Assembly: GCA_910577405.1 (NCBI GenBank)
Contig: CAJTMG010000021.1
Location: 2,189-34,188 of the forward strand
Reading direction: 5' to 3'
Length of the DNA: 32,000 nucleotides
Source: an uncultured Oscillibacter sp.
GTDB lineage: Bacteria; Bacillota; Clostridia; Oscillospirales; Oscillospiraceae
Shown: positions 12,656 to 32,000 of the stretch, in pieces
How the letters are laid out: each line of letters opens with the position of its first letter
Numbering within the stretch: the first letter of the stretch is position 1
Position numbers and translations under genes: made by a program
Notes under the pieces: model-generated
Told to the model about the DNA's origin: nothing
Seen by the model: only the letters and a program-made list of their open reading frames with translations
Databases searched by the model: none

Positions 12656-12657
12656 CT

Positions 12658-13250: not shown

Positions 13251-13259
13251 GATATTGAG

Positions 13260-13879: not shown

Positions 13880-13990
13880 CTGTTTTGTGATGGCGAGTGG
13901 CGAACAAGTTACACTGAAGCCTTTGCGGATTGTAGGTCAATCTAATGGTAGTCAAGAGGTGTCGGGTATGTTGCTCAATACATACTCTTC

Positions 13991-14728: not shown

Positions 14729-14740
14729 AAGGAAGGTTTT

Positions 14741-15115: not shown

Positions 15116-15122
15116 TTATTGC

Positions 15123-15410: not shown

Positions 15411-15423
15411 AAGAAAGGTTAAA

Positions 15424-15603: not shown

Positions 15604-15619
15604 AAAAAGGAAGATTGTT

Positions 15620-16123: not shown

Positions 16124-16143
16124 ATTTCAGGAGGAAAAATCAA

Positions 16144-16422
16144 ATGAAGCAAATCAGAAGAGGTGTCTTTGAGACCAACAGCAGCTCCACTCACAGCATT
16201 ACAATCTGCACGCTGGAAGATTACGAAAAGTTTAAGAGAGGCGAACTTCTCTATGACAGATGGGAGGAAAAACTTGTTCCGGCAGACGCAGAGCATGTTT
16301 CCAGCGGCGACTGTGAGACATACAAGGAATTTGGCAGATATCATGAAACCTATGCTGAAGGATTTAGAACACCAAGTGGTGACGAGATTGTTGCCTTCGG
16401 GTACTATGGCTACGACGGATAA
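16144..16422 (+). CDS. Uncharacterised 'FETNSSSTHS' protein 2 (92 aa)
   Basis: SD AGGAGG 8 nt upstream. The N-terminus RRGVFETNSSSTHSI is identical in motif to protein 1 but uses different codons. Confidence 0.7.
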   Translation: MKQIRRGVFETNSSSTHSITICTLEDYEKFKRGELLYDRWEEKLVPADAEHVSSGDCETYKEFGRYHETYAEGFRTPSGDEIVAFGYYGYDG

Positions 16423-16438
16423 ACGAGGTGGTAGTGAA

Positions 16439-17368: not shown

Positions 17369-17389
17369 TTCGCTTCAAGAGGAGATAAG

Positions 17390-17761
17390 ATGTCAAAATT
17401 GTTTGTGCTTACATTGATGGTATTCTGCCACATTGTAGACGACTATTATCTGCAAGGAGTTCTTGCATCAATGAAGCAGAAGAACTGGTGGACGCAAAAT
17501 ACTCCGGGAAAATTATACCGGTATGACTATATCGTAGCCCTGGTTATGCACGGGTTTAGCTGGACTTTTATGGTTATGCTTCCCATAGCGGCCTTATACA
17601 GTCTAAATTCACCGTATCTGTTTTATTGGTGTTTTACTCTGAATGTTGCGATACACGCTTTTACTGACAATGTGAAAGCCAATTTGCGAACAATCAATCT
17701 TATTATGGACCAATCGGTACATATTGAGCAAATCATCCTTACATTTTTACTTCTGACTTAA
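17390..17761 (+). CDS. Polytopic membrane protein (DUF3307-like by memory)
   Basis: SD GAGGAG upstream. Three to four hydrophobic helices; HIVDDYYLQG near the N-terminus and HAFTDN near the C-terminus. Confidence 0.6.
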   Translation: MSKLFVLTLMVFCHIVDDYYLQGVLASMKQKNWWTQNTPGKLYRYDYIVALVMHGFSWTFMVMLPIAALYSLNSPYLFYWCFTLNVAIHAFTDNVKANLRTINLIMDQSVHIEQIILTFLLLT

Positions 17762-17780
17762 AAGGTTTGGTGGTGATGTA

Positions 17781-18023
17781 ATGGCAGAATATCATGTAGG
17801 CTGTGGCGCATTTGCAATCTATACGGGCACATTAAACAGCAGAAACAAAAATCTGTGGCAGAACAAAACTGAATGCACAGACGAAGCACTTTGCGCTGTA
17901 AGGGACTATATGGTGCAGGAGCTTCTTGGCGGTATTGACTGCCGTAAAGCCACCTCAAGCGGCTACGAATGGACGCTGAAAGACGGACGCACAGTGGAGC
18001 TTAGAGTCACAATAAAAGATTGA
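17781..18023 (+). CDS. Hypothetical protein (80 aa)
   Basis: SD GGTGGTGA upstream. It starts with ATGGCAGAAT like 19118. Confidence 0.6.
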   Translation: MAEYHVGCGAFAIYTGTLNSRNKNLWQNKTECTDEALCAVRDYMVQELLGGIDCRKATSSGYEWTLKDGRTVELRVTIKD

Positions 18024-18024
18024 C

Positions 18025-18054
18025 TTGATTGTAAACTATTTATTTGGCTATGAT
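18025..18054 (+). promoter_or_regulatory. Candidate sigma-A type promoter
   Basis: TTGATT (18025..18030), an 18-nt spacer, then TATGAT (18049..18054), in the 69-nt gap before the gene at 18093. Confidence 0.3.
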
Positions 18055-18092
18055 ATTGAATTTCCAAAATCCATAATGGAGGTATATCAATA

Positions 18093-18344
18093 ATGGAGTA
18101 TGAAATTGTGAATGTATACGATAGGTTCTATGATGACCAATCAAAACAGAAAAATGCAAAATTGCTTGGGAGATTTCAGTTAATAGAGCAGGTCAAGGAA
18201 AACGAGGAATGGAGCGAACTCTTCATTGGGCGTAATATAGACACTGGGGAACTCTGTCTTATCGAAGGATACGAAGTGCGGTATATCGACAGTGGAACCG
18301 CTTATATTGTCTACCCTCTCAAAAACATCTGTGTGAAGGAATGA
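18093..18344 (+). CDS. Hypothetical protein (83 aa)
   Basis: SD GGAGGT 9 nt upstream. Confidence 0.55.
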   Translation: MEYEIVNVYDRFYDDQSKQKNAKLLGRFQLIEQVKENEEWSELFIGRNIDTGELCLIEGYEVRYIDSGTAYIVYPLKNICVKE

Positions 18345-18544
18345 TTTTTATGAAGGCACAACGAATTAAATTTATCTGCATACCAGATGCGATTATCTTT
18401 GCAGATAGCAGAAAGGAAGCCATTTCTATGATTCACAAAGGAGTGTTCGAAAAATGTAAAAATGTCATCGTATCTCTTAGCAGCGGCGAGCAATTCAATT
18501 TGCATTCTCCGCGAAGCAAAGAATACTTTGGATTGAGGATTTAG
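18341..18544 (+). CDS. Hypothetical protein (start 18341 or 18350)
   Basis: Overlaps the previous stop (ATGA); weak SD. Confidence 0.45.
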   Translation: MIFMKAQRIKFICIPDAIIFADSRKEAISMIHKGVFEKCKNVIVSLSSGEQFNLHSPRSKEYFGLRI

Positions 18545-18576
18545 CTTTATGGGACTTGTAATAGAAATATCTGCGT

Positions 18577-18930
18577 ATGTTGGAGTGTGCATACTCTGGT
18601 GCAAAAATGAACGACGACTTAGAAATCATGTGTCGCCTTTCAAGAGCAATTATTGCATTTAGCTACGACGATATTTTCGCCACTCCCACATGGGAACAGA
18701 TGATGGAATCGTATACGATGAAAGGTAAATCCATTAACAAGAAGTATAACTGCGTTTATGCAGAGGACGGTGATATATACCTGAATCCATTCTTTGGGGA
18801 TTTGTGGGTTGTTGATGGAAAATCGTTCATCAAAATAAATAACGGATATGCTATTGATATTAACGAGCCTGAAGGATTCATCAAAGTAGGTCATATCAAT
18901 GGTGTTGTCAACAAACGAATGAAAGGCTGA
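18577..18930 (+). CDS. Hypothetical protein (start uncertain, 18577 or 18607)
   Basis: Open frame of 117 aa with no strong SD at either ATG. Confidence 0.5.
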   Translation: MLECAYSGAKMNDDLEIMCRLSRAIIAFSYDDIFATPTWEQMMESYTMKGKSINKKYNCVYAEDGDIYLNPFFGDLWVVDGKSFIKINNGYAIDINEPEGFIKVGHINGVVNKRMKG

Positions 18931-18937
18931 TTTTATT

Positions 18938-19093
18938 TTGAAACAGGAATCATGGATTGCTCGAATTATAAATCGACTGTTAGAGCGTCTTGGAATAATC
19001 AAAATGTATGGAATTAGCAAAGAGGATATGTGCAAAGGTGCGCAATCTATTTGCAATAGAAATTGTGATTCTTGCGCATGGAAAAGTGAATGA
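18938..19093 (+). CDS. Possible small Cys-rich ORF (51 aa) below the ORF-track cutoff
   Basis: My own translation from TTG 18938: KQESWIARIINRLLERLGIIKMYGISKEDMCKGAQSICNRNCDSCAWKSE, then stop. It fills an otherwise empty 187-nt gap. GAAAGG lies about 10 nt upstream. Confidence 0.3.
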   Translation: MKQESWIARIINRLLERLGIIKMYGISKEDMCKGAQSICNRNCDSCAWKSE

Positions 19094-19117
19094 AAGGTTA
19101 ATTTGGTGGTGGTATAA

Positions 19118-19450
19118 ATGGCAGAATTGTGTTTGAAATGTTTCCTTGAAACTTGGCGTCCAAACGCATATGACCGTGCCCATATTGTAATGAGCAAAGA
19201 CAATGAGTTTTGCGAAGGATGTATGGATTGCGTTCCGTATGTAGACCATATCGACCCGTCTGATTTGCGGCGCACTCCAACGGTAGCAGACTTTGTTCAG
19301 GTAGTGGTTCCAGAAATAAAGGCTGGGCGTAAAATTGCCTGCACAGAATGCGGTGCCACTTTTGAAGATGATGATTTGGCTTTTGCGCATGAAGTCGGTG
19401 AATGTCCATACTGCCACACACAAGTCAGGGCGCTTTGGATGAGAGAATAA
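19118..19450 (+). CDS. Cys-rich protein, paralogue of 15424..15603 with an extra C-terminal Zn ribbon
   Basis: See 15424..15603. The additional C-terminus carries CTECG...CPYC. SD GGTGGTGG upstream. Confidence 0.65.
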   Translation: MAELCLKCFLETWRPNAYDRAHIVMSKDNEFCEGCMDCVPYVDHIDPSDLRRTPTVADFVQVVVPEIKAGRKIACTECGATFEDDDLAFAHEVGECPYCHTQVRALWMRE

Positions 19451-19463
19451 TTTGGTGACGTGT

Positions 19464-19904
19464 ATGGTAAATGTACTGTTTGATAGGCTGTTGGATATGT
19501 CTGGAATTGATACAAAAGAAGTATGGTGTTGGCCCGACTCACAGCCATTTTCTCTTGAAGATGTTTTGGAACAAAAGAAAATCGGACTCTTAGGGGATAA
19601 AACACCGTATGGAGATACATGGAGGCACCCAGTAAAAGAATCTCGTGATAGAGGATATCATATAGCAAGGATAATTTACTTTATGGAGAATCCGCAAGAA
19701 ATAGATGGAATCGAAGTAGACAATCCTTGTTTTGATAATGGTATTTTACCTGGATGTAAAATTATTGATGGACGGCATAGAGTAGCAGCAGGAATTTTAA
19801 TTGGCTTGAAAACTGTAAAAATTGAATATGGTGGTCGGTCTGATATAGAAGACTACTTAATGGGTATAAGCGAAGAACGACCGGAAGAAATTCTAACTTT
19901 ATAA
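19464..19904 (+). CDS. ParB/Srx-fold (ParB-like nuclease domain) protein
   Basis: IIDGRHRVAAGILIG contains the DGxHR motif of ParB N-terminal/sulfiredoxin-fold domains. ATG 19464 follows TTGGTGA. Confidence 0.7.
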   Translation: MVNVLFDRLLDMSGIDTKEVWCWPDSQPFSLEDVLEQKKIGLLGDKTPYGDTWRHPVKESRDRGYHIARIIYFMENPQEIDGIEVDNPCFDNGILPGCKIIDGRHRVAAGILIGLKTVKIEYGGRSDIEDYLMGISEERPEEILTL

Positions 19905-19928
19905 AAGATTAGTTTGGTGGTGAGAACT

Positions 19929-20129
19929 ATGTTACAAAAGAAAAGTCTGTACTGTTTTGAGTGTGGTAAAACAACACCGCATTCTTATATCGGGAGCAAA
20001 TCAATGTATGAGGGAACTGGTCTTGCCCGTATTATTATGGCCGCTGCTTCATTTGGTATGTCAGAAACATCATGGGCAGACAAGTATTGGCAGTGTGAAG
20101 TTTGCGGTAACATCAAAAGGCATGGTTAA
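19929..20129 (+). CDS. Hypothetical Zn-ribbon protein
   Basis: CFECG...CEVCG pairs flank a hydrophobic stretch (ARIIMAAASFGM). ATG 19929 follows GGTGGTGA. Confidence 0.5.
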   Translation: MLQKKSLYCFECGKTTPHSYIGSKSMYEGTGLARIIMAAASFGMSETSWADKYWQCEVCGNIKRHG

Positions 20130-20166
20130 TAAAATAAAGTTTTCATAAAAAGTAGGAGGTTTTCTA

Positions 20167-20457
20167 ATGAATTGTGGCATATGCAAAAAGACCGATGGAA
20201 TGTGTTACGCAAGCTACCCGCCTCAAGTCAGGTGTACCATTACAGGAAAATATCATCAATATAATGATGAATGCGACGTGCCCGATAAGACTATGGAAAA
20301 GAGGGGTAAGTTAGCTGGATTTCTCACTGAAGAACTTTTGGAAGAAATTCGGCGGAGGCCAGGAGAGTCCGACCCATGTGAATTGTGTGCGTACTATCCT
20401 CCATCCAGTCTGGGCGGGAAACCATGTTCCGTATGTCCTGCTAGTGGGATAAGATAA
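20167..20457 (+). CDS. Cys-rich protein sharing the C-terminal motif of the Lar-like protein
   Basis: SD AGGAGG 7 nt upstream. The C-terminus PCELCAYYPPSSLGGKPCSVCPA matches PCDLCMYNPPSSTDGKPCSMCPA at 15123..15410. Confidence 0.6.
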   Translation: MNCGICKKTDGMCYASYPPQVRCTITGKYHQYNDECDVPDKTMEKRGKLAGFLTEELLEEIRRRPGESDPCELCAYYPPSSLGGKPCSVCPASGIR

Positions 20458-20526
20458 CTTCATCTGTTTCCTTCTGGGACGCAGGGACAGTCTGAATCTA
20501 TTTTGCAGGCGATATGTAAAAGGATA

Positions 20527-20557
20527 CCAGCCGTCGCACGTAATGCAGAACGGCTGG
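20527..20557 (-). terminator. Candidate terminator hairpin for the minus-strand cassette
   Basis: CCAGCCGT (20527..20534) is the reverse complement of ACGGCTGG (20550..20557). On the minus strand the hairpin is followed by TATCCTTTTAC. It lies 43 nt downstream of the stop at 20600. The loop is long (15 nt), so this is a weak call. Confidence 0.3.
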
Positions 20558-20599
20558 CAGACAGACTTTCGCCGAATTTACGGAGTTGGAAACTACTCA

Positions 20600-20872
20600 T
20601 TACTGAGCAGCCGGGCGGACGATCACCCTTTCTTTAATACATTCTGATTTGAAGTAATCCCGTACAGTTCCATGCAATGATCTAGCCGTTTGGTCAAAAA
20701 ATGTATCCATGTCACATTCAGCATCATCACTGGTATGTTCCCGATAATAACAGAATTTGACCGCCTGGATTACTTTGTCGATTTGACCGCATAAATTTTC
20801 GCAACACTTACTTCTATTGGTACAAGAACTTGTCCTTACCTCAGAAGCGTTTGTGGAATTTCTATTGGTCAT
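20600..20872 (-). CDS. Hypothetical Cys-containing protein (90 aa), minus strand
   Basis: Open frame only; the SD is poor (GGGTAA). It is kept because it is co-oriented with the next gene and followed by a hairpin. Confidence 0.35.
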   Translation of the reverse strand: MTNRNSTNASEVRTSSCTNRSKCCENLCGQIDKVIQAVKFCYYREHTSDDAECDMDTFFDQTARSLHGTVRDYFKSECIKERVIVRPAAQ

Positions 20873-21028
20873 GTTTACCCAAGCTGTTACTACACAAATT
20901 GTGTGGATGAGTCATTTCTGCTCACCTCTTACAGTCACCTGCAAGTTCAGACTGTGCCTTCATCCCAGAGGGATGCTCCGTGTCCAGTCGTTAGATATTC
21001 AGTATCTACAAACAAAGCAGACTCTCTA

Positions 21029-21568
21029 TTAAAAAGGCCATTTTGTATATATACTATATGCAAAAAGGAATATTGAAAATGTAAGCATGACAGCAAACAT
21101 AATCCTCCATACAGCGAAAGTTTGAATGCGAGCAAGTAGATTCTTATAAAGAAATTTAGTCTCTTGATCTAAATGCAATTTTAAATTATACTCTTCTCCA
21201 GAAATAAATATTGTACGCCTTTTTAATGTATGATGGGCAATCATTACCGGACGGTTTATCGTTGGGCCTGACATTTCCTTGATTATTTGCTCAATAGCAT
21301 ACAATTGTTCGGAATCTGCAATCTCCATCAATCTGCCACGTTCAAATTGCTGCCAGGATGCAAAGGCAACTAAAACCGAAATAAAAGAAATACAACAACA
21401 TATTATGTCTGGTACATCACCAAAAGAGATTCCCCACAAAATTGATTCAGCTGTAAAAAGTAAAGCTGGTACATTCCAAACTAATTCATTATGAATTTGT
21501 TGCCTGTTTGACAATACTTGATATTGTATCTCAAGAAAACTGACATCTATACCGCTTTTATCGTTCAT
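21029..21568 (-). CDS. Membrane protein (two adjacent N-terminal TM helices plus one C-terminal TM helix), lysogeny-region moron
   Basis: Minus-strand SD AAAGGGA 7 nt upstream of ATG 21568. TM segments: VWNVPALLFTAESILWGISF, IICCCISFISVLVAFASW and FAVWRIMFAVMLTFSIFLFAYSIY. Confidence 0.65.
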   Translation of the reverse strand: MNDKSGIDVSFLEIQYQVLSNRQQIHNELVWNVPALLFTAESILWGISFGDVPDIICCCISFISVLVAFASWQQFERGRLMEIADSEQLYAIEQIIKEMSGPTINRPVMIAHHTLKRRTIFISGEEYNLKLHLDQETKFLYKNLLARIQTFAVWRIMFAVMLTFSIFLFAYSIYTKWPF

Positions 21569-21771
21569 TCTAATGTCCCTTTCTATTTATTGTAACCATC
21601 TATGTAAAAGATTCGTCATAAGAAATCAAAGTAAAATACAATCAGAGTATAACATATTTTTGGATGAAATGCAACATCAATATGGAACATTCACATTTTC
21701 TGGTATATACGCAAAACCTACACTCATATAAAAGCCTTATCGGAAATAGAATATACAGGAGGTGGAGCTAT

Positions 21772-21915
21772 GTGAAAAGGCAAGAGTTAAAATACATCTT
21801 CATAAATCCTAATACACAAGAAGACACAACAAAAGCATTGCAAAAAATTATTGTAGATAAAATATTGCAGCTCGATAACAATCGAAAAATGCAAACAACT
21901 GATCAGGCAACCTAA
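21772..21915 (+). CDS. Small ORF immediately upstream of the phage recombinase (47 aa)
   Basis: AGGAGGTGG 6 nt upstream of GTG 21772. The part of the tracked ORF from 21664 lacks an SD. Confidence 0.45.
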   Translation: MKRQELKYIFINPNTQEDTTKALQKIIVDKILQLDNNRKMQTTDQAT

Positions 21916-22014
21916 ACCCATATGACAGCAATGATAAAAGTCTTTATCTTTGCTGTCATTTATGTTATAATGATTATGGGTATAGGTTGGTTATTGAAAG
22001 GAGAACCAACGAAA

Positions 22015-23523
22015 ATGAGAATAGCCGCATATTGCCGTGTATCAACCGATGAAGAGAAACAGCTTGATAGCTTGGCGAACCAGAAAAATTTTTTTGAAGA
22101 GTATGCAGCAAAGAATGGTCACGTATTAGTACGTTTGTATGCTGATGAGGGCATTTCTGGGACCAGCTTGAAAAAGCGTGACGAGTTTATTAGACTTCTA
22201 TACGATGCCAAACTTGGATTATTTGACATGGTTGTTGTTAAAGACGTATCCAGGCTGGCAAGGAATACAGTAGACTTCCTGCAAAGCATCCGTACACTGA
22301 AAGGACTTGGAATAAATACACTGTTTCTCACTTCAAATATGGACAGCCTTGGTGAATCAGAATTCGTCCTTACGTTATTTGGTGCTATGGCGCAGGAAGA
22401 AAGCGCTAATCTTAGCAAGCGAGTAAAATTTGGCAAAGAAATCAGCGCAAAAAAAGGCAGGGTTCCGCAGAGAGTTTTCGGATATGATAGAATCGACAAC
22501 TTTACTCTCGTTATCAATGAAAAAGAAGCACAGATTGTTCGTGAAATTTACCGTATGTATATTGAAGAAGGGCTTGGATGTCGCAAAATCAGTATTAAAT
22601 TAAACGAATCTGGACATAAAACAAAATTTAATTGTGAATGGAACCCAAGAGGTGTTAGGCGTGTACTAGAAAATCCAATCTATAGTGGACACTATATCAA
22701 TCACAAATATGAAGTTGGAGACTACTTAGTAGGAAAGGTAGTACGTACTCCAGAGGACCAGCACTTTCACCATGATAGGCCAGAATGGGAGATCGTGTCT
22801 CCGGAAACATTTGCAAAAGCACAAAAACAGTTAGAAATGCGTCGAAAACAATATAATACCGGAGAACCATTTATGCAGGCACGATACAGTAGCAAGTACA
22901 TATTTAGCACTCTAATCAAATGTGAACATTGCGGTCGTTCCTTTTCAAGAAAAGTCCACAAATATGTTAATACTTATATATATTGGGTATGTCCAACAAA
23001 TTATCAATACACAGCAGAAAAATGTGATAATAAAACTAAATTAAGAGAGGACATCCTTCTTTCTAAAGTCAAAGAATATCTTGCATCATTGATTCAAGAC
23101 AAAAGCACTTTTGTAAATAAGATAATTGAAGAAATAGAGAAACAAAATCAAACAAAATGCATCAAACATGATGCCTCAGATATAAAAATGAAGCGTAAAC
23201 GTCTCATCGCAAAAAAAGAACGATACCAGGAAATGTACGCAAATGATGTAATGACCATGACCGAACTAAAAGAAAAGACAGCCGCAATTGCAGAAGAGCT
23301 AGAACGGCTTGACTGCTCAATGAAACAATATGCGCAAATGATTGCTTTTCAAAAGAATGGAGAAGATTACATAAGGCGTTATATACAAGATATCGAGCAA
23401 TTCCTAAATATGGAGACAGTAACGAACATAGATATGCGAAAAGTAATAAGTCGTATCACAGTAAACAAAGACAAAACCATAAAAATTGAACTGAAGAAAT
23501 TTGATATCGATGACATACTATAG
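22015..23523 (+). CDS. Large serine recombinase (phage integrase)
   Basis: MRIAAYCRVSTDEEKQLDSLANQ...VVVKDVSRLARN is the resolvase catalytic domain with the Ser in RVST. A recombinase/Zn-ribbon region (CEHCGRSF...WVCP) and a coiled-coil tail follow. SD AAAGGAG precedes ATG 22015. The hydrophobic extension from 21922 is not credible. Confidence 0.9.
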   Translation: MRIAAYCRVSTDEEKQLDSLANQKNFFEEYAAKNGHVLVRLYADEGISGTSLKKRDEFIRLLYDAKLGLFDMVVVKDVSRLARNTVDFLQSIRTLKGLGINTLFLTSNMDSLGESEFVLTLFGAMAQEESANLSKRVKFGKEISAKKGRVPQRVFGYDRIDNFTLVINEKEAQIVREIYRMYIEEGLGCRKISIKLNESGHKTKFNCEWNPRGVRRVLENPIYSGHYINHKYEVGDYLVGKVVRTPEDQHFHHDRPEWEIVSPETFAKAQKQLEMRRKQYNTGEPFMQARYSSKYIFSTLIKCEHCGRSFSRKVHKYVNTYIYWVCPTNYQYTAEKCDNKTKLREDILLSKVKEYLASLIQDKSTFVNKIIEEIEKQNQTKCIKHDASDIKMKRKRLIAKKERYQEMYANDVMTMTELKEKTAAIAEELERLDCSMKQYAQMIAFQKNGEDYIRRYIQDIEQFLNMETVTNIDMRKVISRITVNKDKTIKIELKKFDIDDIL

Positions 23524-23533
23524 AACCTACCTA

Positions 23534-23911
23534 TTTGATGTCAATGACATCCACCACGGCGACAGGCAGGTTGGAACGGCTCATGAGCTGCAAATCCGGC
23601 TCGCCAGTCCGCAGCTCGGAGGAGAAGATTTTCGCGTTTCCTTCACTGCCGAAGAGAATCGCCCGCTTGTCAAAGACGCACAGGCCCTCCACTGTTACCG
23701 GCGCGGGACAGCTCAGATACGCCTGAAGGGTCACAGAGTAGAAAAAGCGCATATCCACCGTGTAGAAGCCCCGATTGAAGCTCACAGGCTCCACGTCTAC
23801 ATACACGTACAGCAGCTTTGCACTGCCGCCCTTTACCGACAGCGCGCGGTTGATGACATCCACATACTGCATTTTCGGATAGAAACGCAGGTCTTCAATG
23901 CAGTCTTTATC
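23534..23911 (-). CDS. Middle segment of an interrupted host ORF (DKDCIEDLRFYP...VAVVDVIDIK)
   Basis: GC-rich coding sequence bounded on the right by the mini-element junction octamer (23904..23911) and on the left by the phage junction. A stop TAG occurs at 23531..23533, in AT-rich junction DNA. Confidence 0.65.
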
Positions 23912-24027
23912 GGAAGACACAGCGCCTTTGATACTTTTGGAAGCGACGGGCAATTCCGCAAAATCATATTGAAGAAAATACGCGGCCATGATATAATCAA
24001 ACCACTTTTTTGGAAAGGAGTGCGGCT

Positions 24028-24354
24028 ATGAAAGCATTTGATACGCGCTATAAACTTCTGGCGGATATGTATCAGGACGAATACTTTCCAGACTTTTTAG
24101 TGGACAAGGTAAAGGCGGAAATTCAGAAGGTAATCATTCTGCTGGAAAGCGGCGAAATTCAGACGGAAGTCATTCAGAAGAAGTTGGACGAGGCGGTTTG
24201 GGCCATCAATGATTTGCAGGCTGAATTCGACAAAAACGGCAGCGAAATTGAAACTGTCGCCCGGGACAGCATCGGAGAAACCGTCAAATATATTCTGGAG
24301 TGGTTCGGTATTCCCATTGATATCGAAGAGGCCGTCCGGGAGCGGGATTGGTAA
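24028..24354 (+). CDS. Hypothetical cytosolic protein (108 aa)
   Basis: SD AAAGGAG 7 nt upstream of ATG 24028. MYQDEYFPDFLVDK...ETVARDSIGE...WFGIPIDIEEAVRERDW looks like a conserved Firmicutes family (possibly DUF5713, from memory and unverified). Confidence 0.55.
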   Translation: MKAFDTRYKLLADMYQDEYFPDFLVDKVKAEIQKVIILLESGEIQTEVIQKKLDEAVWAINDLQAEFDKNGSEIETVARDSIGETVKYILEWFGIPIDIEEAVRERDW

Positions 24355-24475
24355 GTTTTCCAGCAGACAAGGCAGAAAAAAGGGGAATCTGAACGCCGTC
24401 AAAACACGCCTTTCTGTCATGCTTTGCCGGTAACTGTCTGGTCCTGTCTGATTGTTTATTTCCCGCGGAAGTCCG

Positions 24476-24754
24476 TCATATAATGCTTCCGTTTACCGAT
24501 ATAATTTCCTGTCCTGTAATGGCCTTTTCCGCAGTTTCTTGGGCGCGGCTGGCGACGGATTCCGAAGCAGGATTTTTCCGGGCTCTTGTGCAGTCGGCCG
24601 GACAAGAGCCCCAGCCGTCCGATATCGTTACGGACTCTACTTCCACCGGCTTTCCACGGATATAGATCACCTGCAAACCAGTGATTTTTGTGACCGTCAA
24701 AAGCGTCGCCTTTCCGTTCAGAATCTCCACATCCCTGTGAATGCTGATATCCAT
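24476..24754 (-). CDS. Hypothetical protein (92 aa)
   Basis: Minus-strand SD GGGAGGT 9 nt upstream of ATG 24754. Confidence 0.5.
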   Translation of the reverse strand: MDISIHRDVEILNGKATLLTVTKITGLQVIYIRGKPVEVESVTISDGWGSCPADCTRARKNPASESVASRAQETAEKAITGQEIISVNGSII

Positions 24755-24950
24755 TTCTTATCAACCTCCCAAGCCGTTCTATGCTCGCAGAGGCCGTCCT
24801 ATACGCGCTGCACCATGGAAATCTTGCGGCGCAGCGCCCAATAAAATCATTGCAACAGGCCGTCTATCAGCTTTACAAACAAATTCATCCACCGCAATTT
24901 GTAGGATTCCGCAATCTTTTGGAATTTCCTATATTTTCCTGATATACCTA

Positions 24951-24979
24951 TTGAAACCTTCCCTATCAAATGATAAAAT
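24951..24979 (+). promoter_or_regulatory. Candidate strong sigma-A type promoter with extended -10
   Basis: TTGAAA (24951..24956), a 17-nt spacer, then TGaTAAAAT (24971..24979). It points toward the AbrB-like gene and the recombinase. Confidence 0.4.
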
Positions 24980-25183
24980 GAAGAAGCAGGCAAGGTGTCC
25001 TCAGATATGGCGGTCTGTGTGCGTGTCAACCAATCAACCTGACCAGTATGCTCAAGCTGGATCAAGACTATGATTATTCGGCTTTCCAGCAGGGCGGTCT
25101 GGAAAATGGGTCCTGCGGCGGTTTTAATTTCTGTTGAAAATCGGGAAAAAGCATTCTTTATATGCAGAAGGAGGATTCAAAAT

Positions 25184-25366
25184 ATGCCTAATTCCCATGT
25201 GATTCAGTACCTTGACAACGAATGCAGCGTCCAGATTCCCGCAGAGTTTCTGGAGCAGCTCGGCATCCAGGCGGGCGAATGTGTGGAACTTACCTGTCGG
25301 GACGACGCAATCACCCTTGTAAAGGCCGGTTCTCCCGATTCCGGCGCCGGGGACGCGTCTCTTTGA
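25184..25366 (+). CDS. AbrB/SpoVT/MazE-type swapped-hairpin DNA-binding protein (60 aa)
   Basis: SD AAGGAGGA 8 nt upstream of ATG 25184. VQIPAEFLEQLGIQAGECVELTCRDDAITL is the SpoVT-AbrB pattern. Confidence 0.6.
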   Translation: MPNSHVIQYLDNECSVQIPAEFLEQLGIQAGECVELTCRDDAITLVKAGSPDSGAGDASL

Positions 25367-25698
25367 CCGTATCCGCAGCACGGGCAGGGAGGTGAGGCCA
25401 AAGACCGGCGGAACACTTTGCACGCGTCCATAAAAAATAACTATATTTTGTATATGCGACATATTGATAATACTAAAACAATGTGCTGTCATCTTCTTGA
25501 GGGAGGTGAAGCAAATGTTACAGACTATGCTCAGCATCCGAATGAACGACCAGCAGAAACGGGATTTTGACAGCATTTGCAGCGAACCGGGATCGTGTCC
25601 TGCAAGGAGCATTACGAATGAAGGCCAAAACAGATACAAAAGCAGCAACGCCCCCAGCCAAACGAGGTTGGGGGTATTCTTTTTGGAAGGAGGGCCGT

Positions 25699-27195
25699 AT
25701 GTCGGAAAAAGGGAATCTTACGGGACTGCGGGCGTACGCGTATCTGCGGAAATCCCGGATGGAGGAAGGCATGGACACGGAAACGGTGCTCCGGCGTCAT
25801 CGGGAGGCCCTGGAAGAATGCGCGGCGGAGCACGGTTTGTCAATACAGGCGTACTTTCCGGAGGTAGTCAGCGGTGAGAGCCTGTACGCCCGGCCCCAGA
25901 TGCTGCGGCTTCTGGAGGCGGTGGAAAAGGGGGAATGCGGCGCGGTGCTCTGCATGGATTTGGACCGGCTGTCGAGAGGCCGCATGAAGGACCAAGGCAT
26001 GATTCTGGACGCCTTCAAGGACAGCGGGACACTGATCGTGACGCCGGAAAAGATTTATGATTTGTCTGACGAGATCGACGACGAGCTTGCGGAATTCAAG
26101 ACCTTTATGTCCCGCCGGGAATATAAAATCATCAACAAGCGCTTACGGCGGGGACTCCAGCGGTCCATACGGGAGGGCTGTTATATTGCCAACGCGCCCT
26201 ACGGCTACCGCAAAACTGCTGTCGGCCGCCGTCCCACGCTGGAAATCTTCGAGCCGGAGGCAAAATTCGTCCGCGTCATGTTCCAGCTCTACGCCAGCGG
26301 TTACGGCTGCACATCCATTGCGGGACAGGTGAACGCCATGGGAGCGCGGCCACACCGGTCCTCCGCCTTTTCCCGGAACAGTGTGGCGAAGATTCTTCGG
26401 AACCCGGTCTACATCGGAAAAATCGTCTGGGATCAGAAAACCCACGTCAAAAAGAACGCCGGAGGCACGGTAAAGCGTCTCACAATCAGCAATCCGCCGG
26501 AGAAATGGACGGTTGCCGAAGGTCTGCATCCACCCATTATCGAGAAGGAGCTATTTGACCGCGTGCAGGAAATCATAGCGGGACGCTGCCGGCCTGGGAC
26601 GCATGATGGAAGCGTCAGGAATCCGCTGGCAGGGCTGGTACGGTGCGGTATCTGCGGCGGGCCTATGCAGCGGATGACCCTGAAAGGAGAAGCATACCTG
26701 CTGTGTCCCCGGAAGGGGTGCTGTGCGGCGGCAAAATTCACGCTGGCCGAGGGTCGGGTACTGCGGCATTTGGAGGACCTTCTGGCGGGGATGGAACCGG
26801 CGCTGTCTTCAGGCCGTCCGGATTTGCCGCTGCTGGAAACCGCCATATCGGATATCAGCGCCTCCCTGTCTGCCGCCCAACGTCAAAAGATCCGCCTGCA
26901 TGAGCTTCTGGAACTGGGCGAGTACGATTTGCCTACCTACCGGGCACGGATGGAGGCAGTAACGGAAAAGCTGTCGGAACTGGAACGGCAGCGCGAGGAA
27001 GCCCGTCTGCGTTTGGAGCAGGCCCTGCAAAGCCAATCAGAAAAGGTGCAAAGCGTGCTGGACGCCTACAGAACCAGCGATGCGGCACAGAAAAACGCCC
27101 TTCTGCATTCTGTTATTGAGCAGATCACATACTACAAGGAAAAGAAGAGCAGACCCGCCGATTTTCAGCTTGAGTTTATACTGAAACCCGGTTGA
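25699..27195 (+). CDS. Large serine recombinase (SpoIVCA/CisA-like) of the mini-element
   Basis: SD GGAAGGAGGG 4 nt upstream of ATG 25699. AYAYLRKSRMEE...LCMDLDRLSRG is the catalytic domain. A recombinase domain and Zn ribbon (CGICGGPM...LLCPRKGC) and a coiled-coil tail follow. Confidence 0.9.
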   Translation: MSEKGNLTGLRAYAYLRKSRMEEGMDTETVLRRHREALEECAAEHGLSIQAYFPEVVSGESLYARPQMLRLLEAVEKGECGAVLCMDLDRLSRGRMKDQGMILDAFKDSGTLIVTPEKIYDLSDEIDDELAEFKTFMSRREYKIINKRLRRGLQRSIREGCYIANAPYGYRKTAVGRRPTLEIFEPEAKFVRVMFQLYASGYGCTSIAGQVNAMGARPHRSSAFSRNSVAKILRNPVYIGKIVWDQKTHVKKNAGGTVKRLTISNPPEKWTVAEGLHPPIIEKELFDRVQEIIAGRCRPGTHDGSVRNPLAGLVRCGICGGPMQRMTLKGEAYLLCPRKGCCAAAKFTLAEGRVLRHLEDLLAGMEPALSSGRPDLPLLETAISDISASLSAAQRQKIRLHELLELGEYDLPTYRARMEAVTEKLSELERQREEARLRLEQALQSQSEKVQSVLDAYRTSDAAQKNALLHSVIEQITYYKEKKSRPADFQLEFILKPG

Positions 27196-27239
27196 CGCTC
27201 TGCTCTTCCAAAAAGTATTGACGCCGCTGCCTCTTTCTC

Positions 27240-27335
27240 TCGGCAGGAATCATAAATTTTCCTGGTATGGATGCAAACCGCCTCACGGATGCCGCTGAAA
27301 TCCGATACGGGACCGGGCATTACTTTCTCGGGCAT
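27240..27335 (-). CDS. N-terminal segment (32 codons) of the interrupted host ORF
   Basis: Minus-strand SD AGGAGGT 7 nt upstream of ATG 27335. It encodes MPEKVMPGPVSDFSGIREAVCIHTRKIYDSCR and then runs into element DNA. Confidence 0.6.
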
Positions 27336-27438
27336 TGCAATTACCTCCTGAATAAGTAGCTGTGTGAAAGAACAAAGTCCTTTCAATCCAGTGTATGCAG
27401 CGGCGGAGGGTTGGTGAAAGTATAGGACGGCGGAAAAG

Positions 27439-27489
27439 AACGCGGCTTTCCCATAACCGGAAGCAGTCAAAGGAAAGCCGCGTTTTTTC
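27439..27489. terminator. Stem-loop terminator between the DUF3048 gene and the interrupted ORF
   Basis: AACGCGGCTTTCC (27439..27451) is the perfect complement of GGAAAGCCGCGTT (27472..27484). TTTTTT follows on the + strand and CTTTTCC follows on the - strand. It lies 20 nt downstream of the minus-strand stop at 27509. Confidence 0.5.
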
Positions 27490-27508
27490 TGTTGTTTCTA
27501 TGCTATAT

Positions 27509-28594
27509 TCACTGATAACTCAGGCTTCCGGTTTTGGGCGAGATAAAGCAGACGTAGCTGTTGCCCTTTCCCATTGCCAGCGGCCGGCCGTTCTGGAGGG
27601 TATAGACAAGCGGATCGTCTCTTCCATTTCGTTCCCAGAAAATCGGAATTGCCTTACCGCCGCAGAAATAGGTACCGTCGCCGCCCTTGATGGTCTGGAC
27701 CCGCAGACGGCCCTCAGAATCCAGGATCTGCATGGAGGTCTCCAGCACCAGAAGATTCACTGTGCTGACCTGCTGACCGTTGCCGCCGTCCACATGAGCC
27801 TCTCCGTACTGGCTGGCCTGATAGGTTTTGCTAGCGGGGTCGTAGTCAAAGAGTCCGGTTTTGTAATTGGAGAATTTCACAGTCACCTGCTCCGCCGTCT
27901 CGCCGTTTTCCGGGGTTCCGTCCTCTGCAAACGCCTGTAAATAGTGGTACGTCCCGGGATGCTCCAATTCAAAACCGCTCCGGCCCAGATATTCCTGAAT
28001 CTTCTCTCCGGAGGTAACCAGGCTGTGCTCGTAACCGTTGTTCCGTTTCCTGTCCGGGTCTCGCCAGAAGATTTTCGCGTCCTCGCCGCCCCGCACGCCG
28101 TCCATGTTATCCACGCGCCATTTTCGGATATCTGTGTAAGCCTCCTGACTGCCCCCGGCATGGACCAGCAGCGCGTCATGACCCAGGGCCAGCTCGATAT
28201 AATAGGGCCGGGTGGAACGGACGCTCCCCAGAAGTTCCACGCCCTCCAGAGACTGATAGACCGCCAGCATCCGGGTAATGCCCCCCTCCGCCGGGACCTC
28301 ATAAATCACGTCCGCCTGGGAAATGCCTATCTGCGGCTGGGCCTTTTTGATATTGTTCAGCATCACCGCTACGGGCCGTTTTGCCATTTCCTCCGGCTCA
28401 ATGGGCAGACCCGTCAGAGGATTGGTGCCCGCAGGGACGTAAGGCTCCGGCTCTGGTTCCGGCTCCGGTACTGGCAGCGGCTCCGGAGCCTCCACTGGCG
28501 GCGGCTCTTCCACCGGAGGCAGCTCCTCCTTTTTGCCGCAGGCCGTCAGGACCACCAGCAGCGCCGCCATCAGGAACACCAATACTCTTTTCAT
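27509..28594 (-). CDS. DUF3048-family lipoprotein (YerB-like)
   Basis: Lipobox LVVLTAC, a Pro/Glu-rich linker, then NPLTGL...RPVAVMLNN...QADVIYEVPAEGGITRMLAV, typical of DUF3048. Confidence 0.75.
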   Translation of the reverse strand: MKRVLVFLMAALLVVLTACGKKEELPPVEEPPPVEAPEPLPVPEPEPEPEPYVPAGTNPLTGLPIEPEEMAKRPVAVMLNNIKKAQPQIGISQADVIYEVPAEGGITRMLAVYQSLEGVELLGSVRSTRPYYIELALGHDALLVHAGGSQEAYTDIRKWRVDNMDGVRGGEDAKIFWRDPDRKRNNGYEHSLVTSGEKIQEYLGRSGFELEHPGTYHYLQAFAEDGTPENGETAEQVTVKFSNYKTGLFDYDPASKTYQASQYGEAHVDGGNGQQVSTVNLLVLETSMQILDSEGRLRVQTIKGGDGTYFCGGKAIPIFWERNGRDDPLVYTLQNGRPLAMGKGNSYVCFISPKTGSLSYQ

Positions 28595-28893
28595 CGTACA
28601 CCCGCCTTTCCGCAGTTCTTATCTGTTATGATACCAACCCCCGCCGGTATCGTCAAGCCGCTTTCTGACAATTTCCATCAAATTTCGCGTTTGGCGGACA
28701 AAGGGCTTGTGCTTTCTATAAAAAGGGCGTATAATAGGAATGATATTCCCGCAAAAGAATGGATGCCCTCTTCATGCTGTGCAATGACAGAAACCAGTAA
28801 CTATCCAACGTCTTTTACAGCTTCCAGCGCCTCCGCACTCCGGATAAATACAAAATTTTTCATTCCTAACTCAGATAAGGGGGGACCGACTTT

Positions 28894-29412
28894 ATGCCTG
28901 GTTTTATACAGGACCAGCTTGAGATTAAATTTCTGATACTCTACATTGCCGCCCGGGTGATTGAGCCTATCCCTTTTGATACCATGCTGGATCTGACAAT
29001 GTGCGATGACGCCATTGACTATTTCGATTTCTCCGCCTGTCTCGCTGACCTGGTAAAGACCCAGCATCTGCGGTTAGAGAAGGATTTGTATGCCATCACG
29101 GAAAAAGGCCGCCGGAACAGCGCCATCTGCGAGACGAGCCTGCCGTACTCGGTGCGGCTGCGGTGCGACCGGAACCTTTCAGAGTGGAACCGGAAGCTGC
29201 GGCGGCGGAATCAGGTACGGGCGGTGACGGAAAAGCGCGCCAATGGGACATATACCCTGCGGCTCTCTCTGGACGACGACATCGGCAGCGTGATGGATCT
29301 GCGGCTGATGATTGTCCATGAGGAGCTGGCCAAGACCCTGGCAGCGCGCTTTCGAAGAGAACCGGAAAAGCTGTACAACAGTATCCTGAGCCTGCTTCTG
29401 CAAGAAGAATAA
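28894..29412 (+). CDS. DUF4364-family protein
   Basis: SD AAGGGGGG upstream. The N-terminal QLEIKFLILYIAARV...PIPFDTMLDL pattern matches my memory of DUF4364. Confidence 0.55.
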   Translation: MPGFIQDQLEIKFLILYIAARVIEPIPFDTMLDLTMCDDAIDYFDFSACLADLVKTQHLRLEKDLYAITEKGRRNSAICETSLPYSVRLRCDRNLSEWNRKLRRRNQVRAVTEKRANGTYTLRLSLDDDIGSVMDLRLMIVHEELAKTLAARFRREPEKLYNSILSLLLQEE

Positions 29413-29443
29413 GAGAGATATGAACAAGCCGGAAGGAGAAGCT

Positions 29444-30028
29444 ATGATGAAGAAATGTATGCCGATGGTATTCCTGACGCTGATCTGTGTGGGGTGCCTT
29501 TGGCTGATGACGCCCCGCCCGGAGCTTCTGGAGAACGACGCTCCCCAGGAAGACAGCATCATGATTCCCGATGCTCAGGTTCCTCTGGCCGAAGCTCCCG
29601 CAAGCTCTGCCGAGGACCCCTACGCCCAGTTTTCCGACAGTCAGCTCAATACCCTCCGGGAGGTGCTGGACCTGGTGAACGACGCCCGGGAAGCCGCCGG
29701 AGTGGACGCGCTGGCTCTGGACCCTGCCCTCTGCGGCGCGGCACAGCTCCGGTCCGGGGAATGCGTGAGCAAGTTCAGCCACACCCGGCCCGACGGCTCC
29801 AGCTACAAGAGCGCCATTTCAGAGGCCGGCGTCTCCTGCGGGTACACCGGTGAAAACGCCGCTACCGGGCAGTCCAGCGCGAAACAGGTGGTGGACTCCT
29901 GGCTGAATTCGGAGGGACACCGGGCCAATATTCTCAACAGCAATTATACCCGGCTTGGCGTCGGCTTTGCCCCCAATACCGGGAATCACTACCAGGGCTA
30001 CGCGTGGGTGCAGCTCTTTGCTGATTAA
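29444..30028 (+). CDS. Secreted CAP/SCP-domain protein (YkwD-like)
   Basis: SD GGAAGGAGAA precedes ATG 29444. A signal/TM segment (MPMVFLTLICVGCLWL) is followed by NDAREAAGV..L..D..L...A..R........FSHTRPDG...GEN...G......VVDSWLNSEGHRANIL...YTRLGVG. Confidence 0.75.
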   Translation: MMKKCMPMVFLTLICVGCLWLMTPRPELLENDAPQEDSIMIPDAQVPLAEAPASSAEDPYAQFSDSQLNTLREVLDLVNDAREAAGVDALALDPALCGAAQLRSGECVSKFSHTRPDGSSYKSAISEAGVSCGYTGENAATGQSSAKQVVDSWLNSEGHRANILNSNYTRLGVGFAPNTGNHYQGYAWVQLFAD

Positions 30029-30041
30029 ACCGATGAAACTG

Positions 30042-30087
30042 AAAAAATCGGGAATCCTCCTGAAAAGAAGGGTTCCCGATATTTTTA
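30042..30087. terminator. Bidirectional intrinsic terminator between convergent genes
   Basis: AAAAAA, then ATCGGGAATCC (30047..30057), a 12-nt loop and GGGTTCCCGAT (30070..30080, one G.U pair), then ATTTTTA. Confidence 0.6.
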
Positions 30088-30097
30088 TGCACATTTT

Positions 30098-32000
30098 TCA
30101 GCGAATGACCACGTTTTCCTTTCCCAGGGTTTCCTCCGCCTCCTGGATCAGGGCTTTATGGAGAAGGACATGGGTTTTGATGACCTTCCGGGTATCCGCC
30201 ATGACCATCTTGACCAAGGTGCCGCCGGGGAACATTTTGAAGACCAGCTTCATATGCCGCAGGGTTGGGTCCTCCTCCGACGGAAATTTCAGGAAGAGCG
30301 TCTCCCCCTGTACCCGCTTATTGCCATTGGATACAGGAGCGGCGGGCAGATTCTGCTGGCTGTCCAATGGCAGAACCTCGTCGCACATCAGCTGGGGCGG
30401 CTTGTCGTCCCGTACCGAAAGGCGTCCCCGGACCAGCAAGGCGCTGCCGGCCTGCAAGTACGCCGAACAGGTATCCAGAGTCCGGCTGAAGCAGATCATT
30501 TCTATTGTCGCGGCGTCGTCCTCCAAAGAGACGTAGGCCATCAGGGAATTATTCCGGGTAGTCCGTGTCTTCACCGTCGCCGCCACCGCGCCAAAGGTTA
30601 CCCTCTGTCCGTCGGCAAAGCGTCCGCTCTCCAGGCCGCCCTTGATCTCGCTGATGGACGGCAGTTTCATCCTCCGCAGATCGTCCCGGTAGGAGTCCAT
30701 GGGATGTCCGGAGAGGTAAAGGCCGGTTGTTTCCTTCTCCATAGCCATGCGCTCATTCAGGCTGAATTCTGGCAGATCGGGCATAGAAATTTCCGCGTGT
30801 TTCGCTGGCACGCCGTCCATGGAAAAGAAATCCATCTGGCCCTCCAGGTTCTGTTTCTGTCGTCCGGAGGCGTCAGCAAGTACCCGCTCGCAGACCGCCA
30901 GAAGCTGTGCCCGCCGCGCCCCGGTGCCGTCGAACGCTCCTGCCCGTATCAGATTTTCCACCGCCCGCCGGTTCATATCCGTACCCGTCAAACGCTGGCA
31001 GAAGTCATAGAAGGACGCAAAGGGGCCTTTTTCCCGCTCCCTGACCATGGCCCGGATAAAGCCCCGGCCGATGCTCTTGATGGCTGCCAGCCCGAAACGG
31101 ATGCCCTCCGGTTCCACCGTAAAGCCGTCCTCAGAATGGTTCACGTCCGGCGGCAGAAGGGGGATTCCGCAGTCCCGGCACTCGCTGATATAACCGGCCA
31201 CTTTCTCCGTATTATCCAGCACGCTGGTCAGAGCCGCCGCCATGTACTCCCTGGGATAGTGGCACTTGAACCAGGCCGTCTGATACACCAGGACTGCATA
31301 GCTGACCGCGTGGGCCTTGTTGAACGCGTACTCAGCAAAATCGTAGATCTTCTCGTAAATAATTTTCGCCGCAGTCTCCGGAACCCCGTTGGCGATGCAG
31401 CCGGAGATATGCCGATCCGGGTCGCCGTGAAGGAAGGGCGTCCGTTCCCGTTCGATCTCGTCCGCGTGCTTCTTGCTCATGGCCCGCCGCACCATATCCG
31501 CCTGTCCCAGGGAGTAGCCCGCAAGCTGCTGGAAAATCTGGAGGACCTGCTCCTGATAGACAATACAGCCGTAGGTATTGGACAAAATAGGTTCCAGCTT
31601 TGGATGGTCGTAGCGGACCATAGCAGGATTTTTGGCGCACTCCAGGAATTGGTTGATGGAATCCATAGGCCCGGGCCGGTAGAGGGCGATGATGGCCGTC
31701 AGGTCCTCGATGCTTTTGGGCTGAAGTCCCACACAAACGCCGGTCATGCCTGTGGACTCCATCTGGAACACGCCGGAGGTCCTTCCCGCGGAGAGCATTT
31801 TGTAAGTTTCCGGGTCCCCTGCCGGGATGTCCTCCAGACGGAAGCCCGGTTCCTCAGCCTGCACGGTCTTCACCGCGTTGTCCAGAATGGTCAGGTTCCG
31901 CAGGGCCAGGAAGTCCATTTTCAGCAGGCCCAGACGTTCCAGCGTGTTTTTCTCATACTGGCAGACCAACACATCGTCATTCTTGGACAGGGGCACGTAC
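30098..32000 (-). CDS. dnaE: Host DNA polymerase III alpha subunit DnaE, 3' part (the 5' end is beyond the window)
   Basis: GVFQMESTGM, IVYQEQ, FNKAHAVSYA, a helix-hairpin-helix region and a C-terminal OB-fold-like tail; GC-rich codon usage. Confidence 0.9.
   Translation of the reverse strand, partial: YVPLSKNDDVLVCQYEKNTLERLGLLKMDFLALRNLTILDNAVKTVQAEEPGFRLEDIPAGDPETYKMLSAGRTSGVFQMESTGMTGVCVGLQPKSIEDLTAIIALYRPGPMDSINQFLECAKNPAMVRYDHPKLEPILSNTYGCIVYQEQVLQIFQQLAGYSLGQADMVRRAMSKKHADEIERERTPFLHGDPDRHISGCIANGVPETAAKIIYEKIYDFAEYAFNKAHAVSYAVLVYQTAWFKCHYPREYMAAALTSVLDNTEKVAGYISECRDCGIPLLPPDVNHSEDGFTVEPEGIRFGLAAIKSIGRGFIRAMVREREKGPFASFYDFCQRLTGTDMNRRAVENLIRAGAFDGTGARRAQLLAVCERVLADASGRQKQNLEGQMDFFSMDGVPAKHAEISMPDLPEFSLNERMAMEKETTGLYLSGHPMDSYRDDLRRMKLPSISEIKGGLESGRFADGQRVTFGAVAATVKTRTTRNNSLMAYVSLEDDAATIEMICFSRTLDTCSAYLQAGSALLVRGRLSVRDDKPPQLMCDEVLPLDSQQNLPAAPVSNGNKRVQGETLFLKFPSEEDPTLRHMKLVFKMFPGGTLVKMVMADTRKVIKTHVLLHKALIQEAEETLGKENVVIR

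Follow-up and report, generated by a model that had tools for sequence, protein, structure and literature searches.

Analysis of a 32,000-nucleotide stretch of DNA from an uncultured Oscillibacter sp. (assembly GCA_910577405.1, contig CAJTMG010000021.1, positions 2,189 to 34,188; the whole of it is referred to here as the window) confirmed that an uncharacterised but conserved gene of Oscillibacter-like Oscillospiraceae, encoding 276 amino acids (aa), has been cut into three by two unrelated mobile elements. A mini-element of 3,328 bp is inserted at codon 32/33 and a large prophage-like element at codon 152/153, while the third piece of the gene lies outside the window. The initial annotation of this DNA had proposed that one host open reading frame (ORF) lies in at least three pieces because of two serine-recombinase elements, and orthologues validate both the join between the first two pieces and the continuation of the protein beyond them. 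By analogy with the skin and SPbeta elements of Bacillus, we think it fairly probable that the gene is a late mother-cell gene that would be rebuilt by excision, and that two excisions would be needed. The two pieces of the host gene located in the window and the junction at which the second one ends are as follows.

27240..27335, minus strand: piece 1 of the host gene, codons 1-32 (MPEKV...YDSCR), with the ribosome binding site (RBS) AGGAGG at 27349..27344.
23550..23911, minus strand: piece 2 of the host gene, codons 33-152 plus GA, the first two bases of codon 153.
23531..23551, minus strand: host/phage junction, with the crossover dinucleotide GA at 23551..23550; the phage arm TGTCATTGACATCAAATAG gives the false ending D-VIDIK followed by a stop.

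On the minus strand, the ATG at 27335 downstream of AGGAGG starts the segment MPEKVMPGPVSDFSGIREAVCIHTRKIYDSCR, which ends at 27240 and is followed by unrelated sequence. The same frame picks up at 23911 with DKDCIEDLRFYP...PVAVVDVIDIK and reaches a stop at 23533..23531 (minus strand). The ribosome binding site, the start codon and the resumption of the frame 3328 bp further on are all as first annotated. Joining 27335..27240 (32 codons) to 23911..23550 (codons 33-152) keeps the frame, and the joined 158-aa protein has 3,858 database protein matches, the best of which share 80-93% identity over 97-100% of the query. Orthologues without an interruption have 274-277 aa, and the segment DSCRDKDCIEDLRF across the DSCR/DKDC join is invariant among the aligned orthologues. 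An orthologue search across this join had been named in advance as a test of the proposal, and orthologues were found to span it. Where the window reads ...AVVD VIDIK and stops, orthologues read ...AVVE/AVDPIVLD... and run approximately 120 residues further. Since the orthologues continue beyond VIDIK, the protein does not stop there and the phage is located inside the gene; the possibility that the protein naturally ends at VIDIK is likewise contradicted by a closely related contig (L089) whose gene reaches 276 aa. Both elements do occupy one gene, as had been claimed, but the host segment between them measures 362 bp instead of about 380 bp.

An assembly chimera or a chance in-frame match would be another explanation for such an arrangement; nothing was found in its favour, and it is refuted. 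L089 is an independent metagenome contig that is 99.3% identical to window positions 23550..29156 and carries the same 3.3-kb element at the same place. Because it contains that element with the same two junctions, an assembly artefact is ruled out. The same junction codons also occur in dozens of contigs from other samples, and the join recreates a motif that is invariant among aligned orthologues. L089 does not carry the phage; there the gene goes on through GTGGTGGA-AGCCGTGGACCCC... to a 276-aa product with a cysteine-rich tail, which reveals the form of the third piece absent from the window, and a cwlD-like amidase gene lies downstream. The phage is a polymorphic insertion, and the small element is present in both sampled members of the lineage. 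We predict that GA-AGCCGTGGACCCCATCGT... (codons 153-276), followed by a cwlD-like gene as in L089, will be found beyond the distal prophage arm.

The small element, its attachment (att) sites and its large serine recombinase (LSR1) were delimited as follows.

23912..27239: small gene-intervening element, 3,328 bp, 52.7% GC vs 56.9% for the host flank.
27215..27262, minus strand: attL of the small element, crossover GA at 27239..27238, compared with the intact attB in L001, L005 and L006.
23887..23934, minus strand: attR of the small element, crossover GA at 23911..23910.
25699..27195, plus strand: LSR1, large serine recombinase of the small element, 498 aa, with its 3' end facing attL.

The attL site reads ...TGCCGA-GA-GAAAGAGGCAG and attR reads ...GTCTTCC-GA-TAAAGACTGC, GA being the sole in-register identity between the two. 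In silico excision of the small element at this GA produced TGC CGA GAT AAA GAC, the exact orthologue sequence. The reconstructed attP, GTATCAAAGGCGCTGTGTCTTCC-GA-GAAAGAGGCAGCGGCGTCAATAC, forms an imperfect inverted repeat of 23 bp in which 16 of the 23 positions match (hand count); such a repeat is a hallmark of serine-integrase attP sites. LSR1 matches the Pfam families Resolvase (5.5e-19), Recombinase (PF07508, 2.2e-25) and Zn_ribbon_recom (PF13408, 3.6e-05), the zinc-ribbon score of 24.5 bits being slightly below the 25.3-bit cut-off.

The large element carries a recombinase of its own (LSR2).

1..23549: right arm of the large prophage-like element, 42% GC, which continues past the left edge of the window.
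22015..23523, plus strand: LSR2, large serine recombinase of the prophage-like element, 502 aa, with its 3' end facing the junction.

At the phage junction the window reads GTGGTG-GA followed by TGTCATTGAC, so that GTGGTGGA continues into TGTCATTGAC in the window vs AGCCGTGGACCCC in L089, and removal of the phage element at the GA restores the exact codons of intact orthologues. LSR2 matches Resolvase (2.2e-32), Recombinase (PF07508, 2.2e-19) and Zn_ribbon_recom (PF13408, 4.1e-12). The Y-x-R-x-S serine motif, as read in the translations, is YLRKS in LSR1 and YCRVS in LSR2. Each interruption is edged by its own full-length, three-domain large serine recombinase, as the initial annotation had stated, and its description of the two elements as unrelated holds as well, LSR1 and LSR2 being only about 27% identical. 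A search against PHROGs detected a DNA polymerase (4e-175), NrdD (8e-153), NrdG, thymidylate synthase, dUTPase, an HNH endonuclease and a PAPS reductase in the phage arm, which identifies the visible 23.5 kb as the predicted replication and nucleotide-metabolism arm of a large phage. Virion genes are absent from the 23.5 kb of the element inside the window. The earlier description of a full phage is therefore plausible from the replication and nucleotide-metabolism genes of this arm, but the portion in the window contributes no virion genes to it. INPHARED contained no close phage relative, the best LSR2 match being 44% identical and DNA matches covering at most 7% of the query.

A further observation concerns the phage-side junction. 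In L007 (897-986) and L008 (approximately 10457-10546), a 90-bp segment just inside the phage-side junction consists of two 18-bp inverted repeats, which resemble recombinase arms, and a 54-bp spacer. The L007 segment is the 100% reverse complement of that in L008. Further into the phage, the DNA of the two contigs is 97% identical in direct orientation, as against only 71.5% identity between their host genes. The 90-bp unit has the look of a small invertible segment or of a second site resembling attP. The window has a related repeat at 23495..23551, in which the arm is repeated directly and the second copy encodes the final LSR2 codons.

Both insertion points proved to be recurrent. A metagenome scan for LSR1 relatives gave 72 loci of 40-99% identity, and at about 50 of these (57-99% identity) a piece of the target gene directly follows the recombinase gene and is always cut at R32/D33. 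The orientation seen in the window was found at 21 loci, in which the recombinase-proximal arm TATAAgGCGCTATATCTTcC is followed by TC and then by the reverse complement of piece 1. Among the matches listed, 22 loci have the opposite orientation, with arm TATAAgGCGCTATATCTTcC followed by GA and then by CAAAGACTGC, the start of piece 2. Insertion orientation follows the central dinucleotide beside the conserved arm (GA vs TC); control of orientation by the central dinucleotide is established for serine integrases in vitro. Relatives of LSR2 (46-70% identity) are positioned at codon ~152-155 in L091, L104, L106-109, L113, L127, L140, L151, L159, L161 and L162, and the L161 and L162 elements lie in opposite orientations, again with arm-TC and arm-GA. 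Both sites are filled simultaneously in at least 11 other contigs, which form approximately four groups by recombinase identity. The elements can be very compact: the second-site element of L108 spans just 3.26 kb and encodes an aldehyde dehydrogenase and a recombinase, and the first-site element of L138 spans 2.9 kb with a lipoprotein-like ORF as cargo. LSR1 and LSR2 thus represent two lineages, each tied to one of the two sites in many genomes and in either orientation.

Some copies of the target gene depart from this pattern. In seven 205-aa proteins (P0113-P0118 and P0120) the N-terminal two-thirds are Oscillibacter-like, and residues ~120-155 plus a read-through tail are identical to the L108 copy (7674..8078), the carrier of the mini-element with the aldehyde dehydrogenase and LSR2-type recombinase. 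This suggests that the L108-type mini-element has moved together with flanking target-gene DNA and may have spread by homologous recombination. L101 has an N-terminal piece beside the recombinase (7534..7635, minus strand) and a nearly full second gene copy (11139..11906, minus strand; residues 25-276, 64% identical). The second copy is on the side from which the element should be absent; either a paralogue or a rearrangement may account for it.

The target family comprises 1,416 clusters at 50% identity and is carried by at least 598 species genomes. The best 80 of these by match quality are labelled almost entirely as Oscillospiraceae or unclassified Clostridia, Oscillibacter, Dysosmobacter, Vescimonas, Flavonifractor and Bengtsoniella among them; the genome-collection scan gave intact genes only, from which no interrupted fraction is derivable. 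Two features precede the gene in the window.

27390..27416, minus strand: sigma-K-like promoter of the split gene, CAC-N16-CATACACT.
27365..27385, minus strand: hairpin of the 5' untranslated region (5'UTR), TGAAAGGAC..TTCTTTCA, between promoter and RBS, with a 9-bp stem when folded.

The motif AC-N16-17-CATAnnnT is present in 78 of 80 orthologous upstream regions, compared to 0.9 expected from shuffles, with a spacer of 16 in 57 loci, and the consensus is tttCACc-N16-GCATAcAcTGG. This promoter fits the sigma-K consensus of Bacillus and Clostridium, AC-16/17-CATAnnnTA. The spoIIIAA promoters of the same genomes display the sigma-E pattern (G/T)CATA-N14-16-CATAgAgT with a different -35 region, and spoIIIAA is a sigma-E target in model organisms. 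Since the two promoter classes are distinguishable in these genomes, the target gene is placed in the late class. The gene is directly upstream of spoIIIAA-AH in L001-L004, and in roughly 35 of 80 genomes the distance to spoIIIAA is no more than about 3 kb. From these sequence features we infer that the target is a late mother-cell (sigma-K class) sporulation gene. Its product is probably a cysteine-rich spore-envelope protein, the cysteine-rich C-terminus suggesting a coat-like role. The sporulation link, which the initial annotation had drawn by analogy only, gains support from the sigma-K-type promoter in 78 of 80 regions, from the contrast with the spoIIIA promoters and from the spoIIIA and cwlD-like neighbours.

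The protein itself could not be assigned to any described family, in agreement with the first reading. Pfam and NCBIfam returned no family for the joined protein or for ten distant family members, the source names of family members offer nothing beyond 'hypothetical protein', and a sequence-profile search of the PDB with the target protein yielded no relative. An AlphaFold model built from 18 close sequences was unusable (predicted local distance difference test score, pLDDT, of 45), whereas 66 diverse sequences gave a pLDDT of 83. A Foldseek search of the latter model against the PDB gave no credible match, the best having an E value of 0.02 and a template modelling (TM) score below 0.2.

Other features of the upstream region and the neighbourhood were also recorded. 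The hairpin TGAAAG..CTTTCA is kept at the same position in approximately 76 orthologous loci, with the apparent compensatory variants TGAAGGCGG..CCGCCTTC and TGGAAGGGG..CCCCTTC; it may stabilise the mRNA or serve as a regulator site. An Rfam search of 23000..28000 gave a chance miRNA match only and none for the 5'UTR hairpin. The host flank at 27509..31996 encodes DUF3048 (minus strand), DUF4364 (plus strand), a CAP-family secreted protein (plus strand) and a DnaE-type polymerase (minus strand), and DUF4364 is the steadiest neighbour of the split gene, occurring beside it in approximately 60 of 80 genomes.

The remaining contents of the small element include three cargo genes.

25181..25366, plus strand: AbrB/MazE-like protein, 61 aa (Pfam MazE_antitoxin 2.4e-05; NCBIfam AbrB domain).
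24476..24754, minus strand: orf92, 92 aa, no Pfam match, a weak candidate for a directionality factor.
24010..24354, plus strand: DUF5713 protein, 114 aa (Pfam DUF5713 9.2e-38).

Near LSR1 relatives, weak homologues of orf92 (36-47% identity) occur in L093, L094 and L097 only, approximately 3 kb upstream of the recombinase gene. A short ORF at 25464..25700 (plus strand), MLQTMLSIRMNDQQKRDFDSICSE..., resembles by eye the start of a RelB/DinJ-type ribbon-helix-helix antitoxin, with a frame change after ~25 codons. Together with the AbrB/MazE-like gene it suggests, by eye only, decayed toxin-antitoxin modules within the small element. The term remnant-like, which had been applied to this element, fits its cargo but not its recombinase and att sites, which are intact. 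In L103, L104, L106, L108, L126, L130, L133, L135 and L142, a GC-rich terminator-like hairpin and then CGAACAT(T/A)TGT stand just before the RBS of the LSR1-family gene. CGAACAT(T)TGT resembles a half-site of the Firmicute LexA (Cheo) box and hints at SOS control of those elements. The small element of the window is without a LexA-like motif and has a hairpin, CCCCCAGCC..GGTTGGGGG, and a T-run directly before the LSR1 RBS.

Under developmental rebuilding, each large serine recombinase would act with a directionality factor to cut its own element out in the terminally differentiated mother cell. The gene would be rejoined in that cell, both elements would be retained on the forespore chromosome, and expression would require two independent excisions. 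Several comparisons bear on whether the split gene is kept functional. The ratio of non-synonymous to synonymous substitution rates (dN/dS) of the window pieces is 0.008-0.08 when they are compared with intact orthologues and 0.025 when they are compared with the L091 copy, which is doubly interrupted. Shared ancestry of the window and L091 insertions was considered and rejected, as their small elements are oppositely oriented. The opposite orientation in L091 indicates independent insertions, and the low dN/dS is therefore no proof of selection after insertion. Changes between the window and L089, which have arisen since the split of two carriers of the small element, were counted for five genes.

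Target gene C-piece: 3 synonymous, 0 non-synonymous.
LSR1: 4 synonymous, 3 non-synonymous (conservative).
Host DUF3048 gene: 5 synonymous, 0 non-synonymous.
Cargo DUF5713: 1 synonymous, 2 non-synonymous.
Cargo orf92: 0 synonymous, 2 non-synonymous.

These counts are small and in the direction expected for a functional gene. Across approximately 50 interrupted copies no stop codons or frameshifts were found. At L158 and L159, the only loci with a fragmented LSR1 and an assessable adjacent C-terminal piece, the target gene is fragmented too.

Several points weigh against developmental rebuilding of the gene. With no Pfam or NCBIfam family and no PDB fold for its product, the spore role rests on promoter type and neighbour genes, and to our knowledge spores have rarely been reported for cultured Oscillibacter. 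Most of the measured purifying selection may predate the insertions, and the post-insertion counts are tiny. The cargo of the small element looks decayed, including antitoxin-like fragments (25464..25566, by eye). Neither the small element nor the visible phage arm yielded a sigma-E- or sigma-K-type promoter in a motif scan, although such a scan cannot exclude this type of control. A directionality factor was not identified: the small elements of the window, L138 and L108 carry unrelated cargo and share no common ORF, so that none stands out as a candidate.

The main rival explanation is safe-harbour integration, in which the two recombinase lineages would have evolved to use conserved sites within a gene that is dispensable during growth, with the product lost until an element leaves (for example upon phage induction) and with no coupling to sporulation. 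The lack of a detected mother-cell promoter in the elements agrees with this, the LexA-box-like CGAACAT(T)TGT before many LSR1 relatives suggests SOS instead of developmental control, and both insertion sites are polymorphic, with L089 free of the phage and many close orthologues intact. Set against it are the interrupted copies of about 50 loci, which retain neither stops nor frameshifts, and the very low dN/dS. In addition, all experimentally studied elements with large serine recombinases in mother-cell sporulation genes are developmentally excised (PMC4191935, PMC5025042, PMC5595907). SPbeta and skinCd both have a constitutive recombinase and place just a small directionality factor under sporulation control (PMC4191935, PMC5025042), so the missing promoter before the recombinase is not decisive, and a factor of this kind could sit outside the window. 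Weighing these observations, we regard safe-harbour integration as unlikely, though still to be taken seriously.

It is also conceivable that the 3.3-kb element is the immobile fossil of a larger element and that the gene is permanently dead in this lineage. The tiny size of the element, its antitoxin-like leftovers and the lack of a recognisable directionality factor would suit a fossil, as would the cargo changes relative to L089, which are only or mostly non-synonymous (DUF5713 1 synonymous/2 non-synonymous; orf92 0/2). However, LSR1 is full length with all three domains and differs by 4 synonymous and 3 conservative changes, both att sites retain the GA core together with a 23-bp inverted-repeat attP, and the gene pieces, promoter and RBS are intact. 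Elements of 2.9-3.3 kb with intact recombinases also recur elsewhere (L138; the second site of L108). A dead fossil is accordingly judged improbable.

The kind of system described here is already known, and the initial annotation's comparison with the architecture of skin and SPbeta is upheld by the finding that each interruption is edged by its own, unrelated large serine recombinase. The skin elements in sigK (SpoIVCA in B. subtilis; skinCd with CD1231 and the directionality factor CD1234 in C. difficile) are, like the small element, degenerate, without virion genes and situated within the coding sequence of a mother-cell gene (here a putative one). They likewise have a large serine recombinase beside one att site, and their precise excision restores the frame, as was reproduced here in silico. 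Unlike skin, the target here is an uncharacterised gene and not sigK, and no directionality factor or sigma-E-controlled gene was found. The sizes also differ, skinCd being 14.6 kb and skinBs ~48 kb compared to 3.3 kb for the small element. SPbeta of B. subtilis (SprA/SprB), like the window phage, is large and of temperate-phage type, carries replication and nucleotide-metabolism genes of its own, and was inserted into its host gene by a large serine recombinase. That gene, spsM, encodes a spore-envelope protein and belongs to the late sigma-K class, as the present gene putatively does. In SPbeta a constitutive recombinase is combined with a sporulation-controlled directionality factor (PMC4191935, PMC5499854). 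Unlike spsM, the host gene examined here also holds a second, unrelated element; only one phage arm is in the window, and the likeness to SPbeta that was seen is functional: a large element with its own DNA polymerase, ribonucleotide reductase and thymidylate synthase.

Sporulation genes split by recombinase-bearing elements further include gerE with gin (B. cereus; GirC/GirX), yabG with yin (C. botulinum), spoVFB with vfbin and spoVR with vrin, and gin demonstrates that non-phage elements can interrupt such genes (PMC5595907, PMC10747680, PMC4191935). In comparison with gin, which is 28.6 kb and carries three recombinases, the small element is 3.3 kb with one, and here a single gene contains two recurrent, dedicated insertion points. 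The heterocyst elements of cyanobacteria (fdxN with XisF; nifD, hupL) likewise sit in genes whose products are required solely in a terminally differentiated cell, and XisF is a large serine recombinase, although phylum, cell type and genes are all different from the present case. Both window recombinases match the XisF model at family level only (97 and 139 bits, cut-off 375). Several elements within one gene have been described in cyanobacteria. What is new relative to skin, SPbeta, vfbin, vrin, gin and yin is the target gene, the two dedicated insertion points with their recombinase lineages, the recurrent double occupancy and the very small size of some elements.

A bolder extension of developmental rebuilding, which we put forward only tentatively, is that the two insertions form a two-key developmental lock. 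A late Oscillospiraceae spore-envelope gene would then be expressible only after both site-dedicated recombinases have each removed their element in the mother cell. The 3-kb elements would in that case rank as the smallest known gene-intervening elements to have been domesticated. As there is no conserved second gene, the directionality factor would act in trans or a new mechanism would operate. Both lineages would have tracked the gene across the family, flipping their orientation by complementing the central dinucleotide (GA to TC).

These results would extend the phenomenon known from skin and SPbeta to the abundant but poorly studied gut Oscillospiraceae, in which sporulation is largely cryptic, and they single out a family of uncharacterised, strongly conserved proteins that probably belong to the late components of the spore. 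They also supply two natural families of large serine recombinases with defined attB and attP sites, and they offer recombinase engineering a useful example from nature in which insertion polarity is determined by the central dinucleotide alone. Finally, the 2.9-3.3-kb elements, composed of a recombinase and unrelated cargo, prompt one to ask what controls directionality when no partner gene is evident.

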